Shown here piece by piece: positions 15,194 to 52,934 of a stretch of DNA of 64,000 nucleotides. This DNA is from Escherichia phage vB_EcoP_PE006. Location of the stretch: the sequence record OQ938541.1; one strand, given 5' to 3'. The notes beneath the pieces are model-generated. The model saw only the letters and a program-made list of their open reading frames with translations, was not told the DNA's origin and did no database searches. The first letter of the stretch is position 1. The number at the start of each line of letters is the position of its first letter. The translations under genes were made by a program, and so were the position numbers.

Positions 15194-15202
15194 TAATGTA
15201 TA
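15194..15202 (+). promoter_or_regulatory. TAATGTATA promoter-like motif
   Basis: Exact TAATGTATA 34 nt upstream of the ATG at 15236, just after a terminator. Confidence 0.45.
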
Positions 15203-15235
15203 TTCTTTGTCTACATATAACAAGGAGGACAACCT

Positions 15236-15988
15236 ATGGCGATGCCTGAAGTGCAAAACCCGATTAACACGTATGGCTGGCTTAAGAAAGCTGTTGCCTT
15301 GTGGGCCGATCGAGACGATGATGAATTTGTTAATCAAATTCCAAACTTTATTAACTTTGCAGAGAAAGAGATTTATCGTAACTTACGTATCCCTCCTCTG
15401 GAAAAAGAAGTGTATTTAGATATTAAAGATGGAGTAGCTTACATTCCTCCTGATTACTTAGAAGCTCAGTGGATGATGAGAGCCAAAGATGGTACAATCT
15501 TCCAAGTAACATCTCCTGAAGAGATTAGCTATCGTAGACAGCATGGAACAATTAACCCATCTCACTGGAATAACCAACCTGTTAACTTTGCTCGTTTCGG
15601 TAGTCGTTTCATTTTCTACCCTAGTATTGAAGCAGATACTCCTGTTTATCCTGATGATGGAAGTCCTTTGATTCCAGCAGAAAACTCAGTCATTCTTAGC
15701 TATTATGCAGACCCACCGGAGTTCCATGAAGATACAGATACCAGCGCTATTCTTACTATTGCACCAGAACTTCTTCTGTATTTCACTCTACGTCATGCTT
15801 GCTTGTTTGTTCAAGATGATAACGGAGTTCAGAAATGGTCTGCATTAGGAAAAGCTATCCTTGATGAAATGGTAGAGCAGAATAAGAAACAAGAGTACTC
15901 AGGTTCACCTATCGCAATTCCGAATAACATGACTCGACTTCAGAGCAGCTTGCCTGACATTTATGGTATTCGTACTTCTCGTGTATAA
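15236..15988 (+). CDS. virion structural protein, function unassigned (first gene after the capsid terminator)
   Basis: 250 aa ORF with RBS AAGGAGG; position suggests a neck or tail component; no motif recognised. Confidence 0.45.
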   Translation: MAMPEVQNPINTYGWLKKAVALWADRDDDEFVNQIPNFINFAEKEIYRNLRIPPLEKEVYLDIKDGVAYIPPDYLEAQWMMRAKDGTIFQVTSPEEISYRRQHGTINPSHWNNQPVNFARFGSRFIFYPSIEADTPVYPDDGSPLIPAENSVILSYYADPPEFHEDTDTSAILTIAPELLLYFTLRHACLFVQDDNGVQKWSALGKAILDEMVEQNKKQEYSGSPIAIPNNMTRLQSSLPDIYGIRTSRV

Positions 15989-15997
15989 GGAGATAAT

Positions 15998-52000: not shown

Positions 52001-52564
52001 TTAGTAAGACACATCGCCACTTGAGTGGGACATGTTGCTCTTGACGAAGTAGCAATACTTGCCAAGACCTTCATTAATTTCTTGAAGCATACTCTGATCA
52101 ACTGGATAAGTGGCTAAATCACCATCAAACTCATCCATCTTCTCAATAATACACATCAAGGTCATGCACATATCAGAGAGCATACCGTCCATATCTAGGT
52201 CAGCATTACCCTCTGAGAACCAAGCATGGGAGAGATAATTGGCTGCTGTAGCGTCCACTTTAACACAGTGGTAACGCATACGTTCAGCAATACGATCTCC
52301 TACTTGTCGTGCGTAATCTTCCAGCTCATCAAACATACCATGAACACCCTGAAATCCTGCACCAGAGACGTTCCAGTGGTAGTTTTTAGCTTTAATATGC
52401 AAGAGTTCCATGTTAGCTTGTAAGCAGCTCAGGATGTGTTCTAGGCTGTTTCCACTAATCATACCCTGCATTGTTTCAAGGCGAGAGATTGAAAGCTCAG
52501 ATCGGTCTAACATATTGTATTCGACACGACCAATATCAGGTAAATCAAAGACATTCTTATGCAT
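52001..52564 (-). CDS. Dps / ferritin-like protein (start possibly at internal Met)
   Basis: NYHWNVSGAGFQGVHGMFDELED matches the Dps ferroxidase-centre helix pattern (HW.V.G..F...H..F.E). Confidence 0.55.
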   Translation of the reverse strand: MHKNVFDLPDIGRVEYNMLDRSELSISRLETMQGMISGNSLEHILSCLQANMELLHIKAKNYHWNVSGAGFQGVHGMFDELEDYARQVGDRIAERMRYHCVKVDATAANYLSHAWFSEGNADLDMDGMLSDMCMTLMCIIEKMDEFDGDLATYPVDQSMLQEINEGLGKYCYFVKSNMSHSSGDVSY

Positions 52565-52886
52565 TTGGGTTATCTCCATCAAGTTCAACTGAATTAGCAA
52601 CGTTACGTTCGATGTTTGCCATCACTTGCTGCGTTATGACAATACAGTTCTGTGGGTCTACTGACTTAGAACGCCCCATTTCAGGGTCATACACCTTAAC
52701 TCGCTTAGCAGTTGAACCTGTAACCTGAAGAACCTTCAACAAATATCCCTGATTACCAATAGACCAAGCAACAACATCACGATTCTTGATAAAGCGACCA
52801 AGCATATCACGATGATAAAACTGTTGCATCACCTTGGATTTTGTAATCTCTTCAGTGGGCGGGGCCACTTTACTCAAATCTAACAT
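52557..52886 (-). CDS. hypothetical protein (109 aa)
   Basis: ORF with an upstream TAATGTATA-like motif. Confidence 0.45.
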   Translation of the reverse strand: MLDLSKVAPPTEEITKSKVMQQFYHRDMLGRFIKNRDVVAWSIGNQGYLLKVLQVTGSTAKRVKVYDPEMGRSKSVDPQNCIVITQQVMANIERNVANSVELDGDNPNA

Positions 52887-52925
52887 AACTCTCTCCTGTA
52901 AAATACAAATTCTTATTGTACTCTA

Positions 52926-52934
52926 TATACATTT
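52926..52934 (-). promoter_or_regulatory. AAATGTATA promoter-like motif (minus-strand sense, one mismatch)
   Basis: About 39 nt upstream of the ATG at 52886. Confidence 0.35.

Follow-up and report, generated by a model that had tools for sequence, protein, structure and literature searches.

The nonamer TAATGTATA, which recurs upstream of genes on both strands of a 64,000-nucleotide stretch of Escherichia phage vB_EcoP_PE006 (OQ938541.1; hereafter the window), very probably belongs to the already published promoter class of the phage sigma factor gp36, and its six gene-linked sites are not new. As judged by alignment, the mapped gp36 promoters P6, P13, P26, P40, P58 and P68 of phage phiEco32 are their positional orthologues. 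One further copy, at 41685 on the plus strand, has no open reading frame (ORF) behind it, and this orphan promoter, together with a conserved non-coding transcript, is the one item that may be new.

Occurrence and position of the motif

Exact TAATGTATA is present in five copies in the window, three on the plus strand (15194-15202, 32222-32230 and 41685-41693) and two on the minus strand (41613-41621 and 47870-47878), against 0.82 expected; in 100 dinucleotide-preserving shuffles the count always stayed below five. Taken as a class, one-mismatch matches show no enrichment (19 against 19.8 expected); therefore, the signal resides in the exact and near-exact intergenic copies. Two of the one-mismatch copies are meaningful by position, TAATGTAGA at 7718-7726 (plus strand) and AAATGTATA at 52926-52934 (minus strand), which brings the total to seven sites. 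A scan with the degenerate pattern [TA]AATGTA[TG]A, taken from the literature, gave seven matches, all of them in spacers as delimited by the phiEco32 gene starts, where about 0.42 would be expected in non-coding DNA (about 8% of the window), and no matches in coding DNA against about 2.9 expected. The mechanical ORF list flags two of these matches as coding, which is due to a spurious 76-aa overlapping ORF and to an upstream in-frame ATG of gene 26.

Six of the seven sites run in the same direction as the gene downstream, at a distance of 12-60 nt. The distance from the motif end to the start codon is 34 nt for the gene starting at 15236, 39 nt for 32269, 37 nt for 47833, 40 nt for 52886 and 60 nt for 40807..41553, in agreement within 1 nt with the 34-39 nt and about 59 nt reported by an earlier sequence-only reading of this DNA. 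That reading had described the recurrence of the motif at a fixed distance upstream of genes on both strands, and had suggested the positional scan given above, which bears it out. Its list of sites (15194, 32222, 41685, 41613, 47870 and 52926) was confirmed, but it missed the site at 7718, which lies outside the range that it covered.

Two other matches deserve mention. Upstream of the holin gene, TAATATATA at 21012 was not accepted as a gp36 promoter: it lacks the G at -11 and carries a C at -34. A relaxed two-part match, TRRNA-N19-AATGTA, is found at 29189-29220 on the plus strand (nonamer TAATGTATT) within the coding sequence of a late structural gene; with a chance expectation of about 0.8 for this pattern, it probably does not mark a promoter.

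Counterparts of the gene-linked sites in phiEco32

By genome comparison, the window phage is a member of the phiEco32 group, as the sequence-only reading had supposed, and a different isolate from phiEco32 itself. About 56 kb of the window aligned directly with Escherichia phage phiEco32 at 92.9% identity and in collinear order. The search among phiEco32-like genomes, also suggested beforehand, showed that the region 39000-45000 matches 106 phage records, with phiEco32 among them at 94%; the closest relative over 41.5-42.0 kb is vB_EcoP_EcoN5.

The gp36-dependent middle and late promoters of phiEco32 were reportedly described by Pavlova et al. in 2012 (J Mol Biol 416:389), as cited by later papers. 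Six gp36 promoters with the single consensus tAATGTAtA lie upstream of phiEco32 genes of the middle and late classes, transcription starts 6-8 bp downstream of the consensus, and the same elements occur at the expected places in all phages of the phiEco32 subgroup (Lavysh et al. 2022, PMC8948821). They are listed in Table S2 of that paper as P6 (TAATGTAgA), P13, P26, P40, P58 and P68; the same six are named in PMC4331800 and summarised for phage SU10 in PMC4281155. The statement, in the sequence-only reading, that TAATGTATA is an element of phiEco32 middle and late promoters was thus correct, since the consensus is given in all three papers (PMC8948821, PMC4331800 and PMC4281155), and the phage-specific promoter class that it proposed corresponds to the six orthologous sites.

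Three putative late promoters of the window are on the plus strand. The P6 orthologue TAATGTAGA (7718..7726) precedes the gene-6 homologue (7738..8211) and has flanks identical to those of phiEco32 position 1677. The P13 orthologue (15194..15202, predicted start at about 15209) is located upstream of a virion protein gene (15236..15988), and the P26 orthologue (32222..32230, predicted start at about 32237) upstream of a large gene (32269..36849). Three putative middle promoters are on the minus strand: the P40 orthologue (41613..41621, predicted start at about 41606) upstream of the gene-40 homologue (40807..41553), the P58 orthologue (47870..47878, predicted start at about 47863) upstream of 47510..47833, and the P68 orthologue (52926..52958, predicted start at about 52919), composed of the -10 element AAATGTATA (52926-52934) and the -35 region TTGGTAGTAGATAT (52945-52958), upstream of 52557..52886.

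The phiEco32 counterparts of the seven window sites are located at 1677, 9101, 26014, 36640 (minus strand), 36704, 42945 (minus strand) and 46870 (minus strand), and their flanks are almost identical to those in the window, matching almost base for base at P6, P26, P40 and P58. The variants TAATGTAGA and AAATGTATA are the same as those of phiEco32 P6 and P68, and the proteins encoded downstream are 91-99% identical to the products of phiEco32 genes 6, 13, 26, 40, 58 and 68. The sites are also kept in Suseptimavirus SU7 and Nieuwekanaalvirus KBNP1711, with the minor exceptions that the P6 equivalent of KBNP1711 is TAATGTAAG and that SU7 has an insertion upstream of the gene-58 homologue. No difference of substance was found between the six sites of the window and the gp36 promoters of phiEco32.

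The phage sigma factor and its partner

The sigma-like gene pointed out by the sequence-only reading at 39610..40254 is present as an ORF on the minus strand and encodes a gp36 orthologue of 214 aa with 99.5% identity to phiEco32 gp36. The ORF matches PDB chain 9m7y_F over its full length (E = 2.6e-145) and is assigned to PHROG 1740, 'RNA polymerase sigma factor'. Its description as ECF-like held in so far as the protein is a sigma factor, but ECF fits it only loosely: the Pfam Sigma70_r2 match scores 19.1 bits, below the cut-off of 24, and no region-4 match was obtained. Promoters of ECF sigma factors have AAC and CGT-type elements. The gp36-type consensus is unlike them, and 'ECF' is a database label rather than a demonstrated membership. 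The solved structure of gp36 contains sigma-2-like and sigma-4-like folds (PMC12276001).

The window genome also encodes, along with the gp36 orthologue, an orthologue of gp79 (82 aa, 58899..59147, minus strand), which is 100% identical to the phiEco32 protein. This protein inhibits the sigma-70 holoenzyme and activates the gp36 holoenzyme (PMC12276001). An open complex of core enzyme, gp36, gp79 and P68 was resolved by cryo-EM by Xu et al. 2025 (PMC12276001). In this complex the element AATGTA is centred at -11.5, the N-terminal domain of gp36 reads -14A, -13A, -12T and -11G, the last of them by means of E79 and H80, and the C-terminal domain contacts -37G and -34A of P68, while gp79, by which region 4 of sigma-70 is displaced, stabilises the C-terminal domain of gp36 (PMC12276001). 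P68 loses its activity when G-11 is changed to A and when G-37 or A-34 is mutated (PMC12276001). In vitro, P26 and P68 are transcribed by the gp36 holoenzyme, and gp79 inhibits rrnB P1 and stimulates P26 4-fold and P68 3-fold (PMC12276001).

Given the near-identity of both regulators, the mechanism can be transferred from the phiEco32 work. Early genes would be read by the host sigma-70 holoenzyme. On entering the RNA exit channel, gp79 would dislodge region 4 of sigma-70 and bring host and early transcription to a stop. The phage sigma would bind the core, and the motif would serve as a -10-like element for E. coli core RNA polymerase carrying gp36, with the N-terminal domain reading AATGTA and the C-terminal domain, stabilised by gp79, contacting -37 and -34. 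Transcription would begin 6-8 nt past the nonamer, at three late plus-strand promoters (P6 at 7718, P13 at 15194, P26 at 32222) and three middle minus-strand promoters (P40 at 41621, P58 at 47878, P68 at 52934).

With the nonamer numbered -15 to -7, all seven sites of the window share, besides the nonamer, T-38, purines at -37 and -36, and A-34; the -37 purine is G in P6, P68 and the orphan site. G-11 is invariant in all seven, and each has a purine at the predicted +1. As these shared upstream positions fit the -37G and -34A contacts, they suggest that the whole gp36 promoter class, though described as single-element, has a weak -35 signature. In addition, P13 and P26 have in common a 9-mer, TAAGACCTA, at exactly -38 to -30 (15171-15179 and 32199-32207, plus strand). 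It has been kept in phiEco32, SU7 and KBNP1711, and the window contains a single further exact copy, at 45518, within coding DNA. This 9-mer may be a late-specific upstream element separating late from middle gp36 promoters.

The orphan site

The plus-strand copy at 41685 is located in a 324-nt spacer between the gene-40 homologue and the 25-codon gene-41 homologue, 64 nt from P40 and divergent from it; the absence of a downstream ORF, already noted but left unexplained by the sequence-only reading, was confirmed. The predicted promoter (41661..41693) consists of the -35 region TTGGTAGTAGATAT (41661-41674) and the -10 element TAATGTATA (41685-41693), with A41700 as the predicted +1. The only other place in the window with the exact 14-mer of this -35 region is P68, where it stands at the identical distance to the nonamer, and its GGTA at -37 to -34 includes the two bases contacted by gp36 in the P68 structure. 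Alignment of 16 distinct sequences from isolates and metagenomes showed that -38 to -31 is invariant and that -15 to -7 is invariant save for two single-sequence differences, whereas the spacer from -27 to -16 varies at all 12 positions; an invariant -35 and -10 with a variable spacer is, in such an alignment, the mark left by a two-part promoter. phiEco32, SU7 and KBNP1711 all carry the site. It is absent from the published six-promoter lists (PMC4331800, PMC4281155, and PMC8948821 with its Table S2), the primary data of 2012 being outside this comparison.

The -35 14-mer shared with P68, the two-part footprint and the +1 A with a covarying hairpin behind it (see below) argue that the orphan site is real, and we regard it as rather likely that 41685 is a working P68-type seventh promoter, transcribed from near A41700.

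A candidate non-coding RNA

Downstream of the orphan site lies an ORF-free, structured and conserved segment, which may correspond to a non-coding transcript of about 160 nt (41700..41858, plus strand). Its predicted parts are a 5' hairpin (41700-41716), a variable module (about 41717-41762), a small hairpin GCAGG-AGCCA-CCTGC (41768-41782) and a long hairpin (41791-41854). Column identity across three genera is 95-100% over 41750-41840, against about 85-95% in the adjacent gene 40. The block folds with -45.8 kcal/mol (z -2.3) on the plus strand and -35.3 kcal/mol (z -1.5) on the minus strand, and the long hairpin alone with -23.5 and -18.2 kcal/mol, respectively; the plus strand folds better because two G.U pairs become A.C mismatches on the minus strand.

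The 5' hairpin of 6 bp spans +1 to +17 and is kept in all 21 distinct sequences, with compensatory pairs at three positions (UA/GC at one, CG/UA/AU at another and GC/GU at the third); in the window sequence it forms on the plus strand only (-3.0 against 0 kcal/mol). Two unrelated forms of the internal module exist, one of about 45 nt, which the window has, and one of about 70 nt, found in phages of the MN05, ECBP2 and EcM-vB1 type. Their distribution, seen in relatives L004, L005, L006, L014, L022, L023 and L026 aligned to about 41717-41762, does not follow genus boundaries and suggests that modules have been exchanged by recombination. Pattern scans of IMG/VR and metagenomes yielded 11 loci only, mostly duplicates of known isolates, and added little covariation.

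The element is confined to Escherichia and Shigella phages of the subfamily. No spacer block was found in the distant relatives with a gp36-like sigma (GAP52, SeKF_80, Privateer and LAh_8), where only about 50-100 nt lie upstream of the gene-40 homologue. Rfam 15 gave no match in the whole window at gathering thresholds, a permissive local scan of 41540-41960 had a best E-value of 2.1, and no tRNA or tmRNA was found by ARAGORN. A micro-protein encoded within 41554-41960 was considered and rejected, since the small ORFs there begin with TTG or GTG and are interrupted in relatives by indels of 1-3 nt. A host mimic or captured host sequence was likewise rejected: neither the conserved block nor the alternative 'form B' module had a BLAST match in E. 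coli genomes and plasmids. As for possible targets, the candidate RNA showed complementarity of 11-14 nt to other parts of the window only at the P68 -35 14-mer and at an A+T-rich 14-mer at 50895, with nothing of at least 12 nt outside promoter elements, and RNAduplex against all translation-initiation regions gave uninformative energies.

It is possible, at somewhat less than even chances, that phages of the phiEco32 group (Gordonclarkvirinae) possess an undescribed seventh gp36/gp79-dependent promoter, divergent from P40, which drives a nearly invariant RNA. This transcript, about 160 nt long, would begin with the covarying stem-loop, continue through the swappable module and finish with the long hairpin, and would have a dedicated middle-phase regulatory or replication-associated role in a virulent coliphage. 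The orphan site would thereby yield a structured non-coding RNA together with the middle genes. That the RNA itself is the functional product is nearly an even bet, leaning slightly to the negative; a stable regulatory role or one linked to replication, with expression alongside the middle genes, is a guess.

Several points weigh against this interpretation and against parts of it. The transfer of the promoter class as a whole from phiEco32 relies on homology, and the published studies list six promoters only, an orphan-type site not being among them. The metagenome contig L022 carries TAATATATA at the orphan site, with G changed to A at -11, the base that gp36 needs. Beyond the 5' hairpin the RNA is invariant, and covariation is neutral on most of the proposed structure; since the 3' domain does not vary, it is silent on the fold of that domain. 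No U-tract terminator was found on the plus strand past the long hairpin, which is itself A+U-rich and is followed by UUUAAAAG, and no terminator-like site was called there. On the minus strand, in turn, the long hairpin is followed by UUUUUAUCUC (UUUUUAU) and could act as a terminator for the upstream operon.

Alternative explanations

The last observation leads to the strongest alternative, namely that the conserved block acts on the minus strand or as DNA and not as a plus-strand RNA, the plus-strand nonamer being incidental or serving only to activate the DNA site. In the minus-strand version the P58 operon would be closed off just before P40 by the block, acting as an intrinsic terminator or as a processing hairpin of the RNase III type, and terminator hairpins likewise precede P6 and P13; yet ordinary terminators, such as the hairpin upstream of P13, vary between relatives, while this block is invariant over about 100 nt, and its minus-strand fold is the weaker one, both for the hairpin and overall. 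In the DNA version it would be a replication origin opened or primed by the flanking promoters. Coupling of origins to promoters is known for T7 and T4, the block lies within the replication-gene module, and behind it come an AT-rich stretch and a pair of GGGACT direct repeats spaced by one helical turn, but cumulative GC skew follows gene orientation and has no inflection at 41.7 kb. Both versions, moreover, leave unexplained the invariant -35 and -10 with their variable spacer and the plus-only covarying hairpin at +1. Taken jointly they seem to us rather unlikely.

It is far less probable that the nonamers are A+T-rich host-type promoters (sigma-70, extended -10-like) read mainly by the host holoenzyme, the phage sigma being irrelevant. 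The SU10 paper does suggest that middle promoters are perhaps also read by sigma-70 (PMC4281155), a perfect TATAAT overlaps the orphan site in one lineage, and a consensus scan finds weak sigma-70-like hexamer pairs near 41668-41697. Against this, the gp36 holoenzyme uses P26 and P68 in vitro and gp79 blocks the sigma-70 holoenzyme (PMC12276001), the invariant G-11 is read by E79 and H80 of gp36 where sigma-70 prefers A, and the region, with 3 sigma-70-like matches, falls below the 5.6 found in shuffles. This explanation has already been largely refuted by the published biochemistry.

Chance recurrence in A+T-rich intergenic DNA, for which only the chance rate of one-mismatch matches and the extra match in coding DNA at 29189 could be cited, is next to impossible and is already refuted by the excess of exact copies over all shuffles, by the confinement of all seven sites to non-coding DNA, by the co-orientation of six of them with a nearby gene and by their orthology across three genera.

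Other features of the promoter regions and of the assembly

The gene 40807..41553 (minus strand), named 'ssb' by the sequence-only reading, has no Pfam match and belongs to a PHROG of unknown function, so that label was not upheld; only a few GenBank records call it a ssDNA-binding protein. In all relatives examined, distant ones included, it is located just upstream of the sigma gene region. The P40 leader (41554-41606, minus strand), beginning CCGCTCAAAGAGAGCAACAATCTT, is almost invariant across three genera. Such conservation is unusual for a 5' untranslated region (UTR) and suggests a translational operator or another regulatory site. The P40 nonamer itself forms one arm of a 19-bp near-palindrome at 41603-41621 (TTATGTATA-G-TATACATTA), of which the plus-strand arm TTATGTATA is not conserved in SU7-type relatives. 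On the other side of the spacer, the 25-codon hydrophobic ORF MVTYIIYFLALLGIVLLAILFLNWF (41877-41954, minus strand) corresponds to phiEco32 gene 41 and is shorter here, by a deletion of about 24 nt, than in most relatives.

At P6, a Shine-Dalgarno sequence AGGAG is found between the nonamer and the predicted start at about 7733, which leaves a leader of only about 5 nt before the ATG at 7738. Translation of gene 6 would then take place on a near-leaderless mRNA, unless the main role of P6 is to serve genes further downstream. G+C-rich hairpins with a T-run, resembling intrinsic terminators, are located on the plus strand directly upstream of P6 (about 7687-7707) and P13 (about 15143-15171); these differ in sequence between this phage and phiEco32, in contrast to the invariant block 41750-41840. 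In the lineage of contig L022, where the variant orphan site is at 8936-8944 (ERZ1034915 NODE-75), the site overlaps a perfect sigma-70 -10 hexamer, TATAAT.

The gene order of the window is collinear with but permuted relative to that of phiEco32, and the window crosses the phiEco32 genome ends near 6.1-6.3 kb: window 5728-6276 corresponds to phiEco32 77000-77551 and window 6087-6501 to phiEco32 1-417. Because the segment of about 5728-6501 crosses the ends of the reference, the window is, on this alignment, a permuted or circularised assembly containing the terminal-repeat region.

Comparison with other systems

A likeness outside the group is offered by Salmonella phage 7-11, where gp47 is also a distant phage factor of the sigma-70 family that directs the host core to late genes in a genome with the same two-arm layout. 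In relatives of the 7-11 type the sigma gene lies beside a gene-40 homologue, as here, but the upstream region is only about 50-100 nt long and without the conserved non-coding block. The promoters of gp47 have the form GTAAtg-N16-aCTA (PMC8948821, PMC4331800); both consensus and two-element architecture thus differ, and neither a gp79 homologue nor a middle class is reported for 7-11 (PMC8948821).

The authors of PMC12276001 compared gp36/gp79 with sigma appropriation by AsiA and MotA of phage T4. In both systems RNA polymerase is steered to a phage promoter class by a small phage protein that remodels region 4 of sigma-70 or displaces it; T4, however, keeps sigma-70 and adds an activator, whereas here a separate phage sigma replaces it.

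For the orphan site and its candidate transcript, a parallel is offered by the short transcripts that phages make from orphan promoters in their replication regions, such as the lambda oop RNA, and by the promoter-linked origins of T7 and T4. The likeness consists in an ORF-less promoter in a replication-gene module that faces against the genes and gives a short structured transcript. The candidate RNA differs in having no sequence or Rfam similarity and no U-tract terminator on the plus strand.

Significance

The middle and late transcription units of this isolate can now be annotated by homology, and the case illustrates that a published phage promoter class can be recovered by a reading of the sequence alone. 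The signature T-38 / R-37 / R-36 / A-34 would extend the -35 contacts of the P68 structure to the whole promoter class. The gp36/gp79 system is structurally defined and is being proposed for synthetic biology, and among the three genera the candidate RNA varies less than the neighbouring proteins do. If the orphan site is indeed an unnoticed strong promoter of the P68 type, a model transcription programme would gain a further level of regulation.

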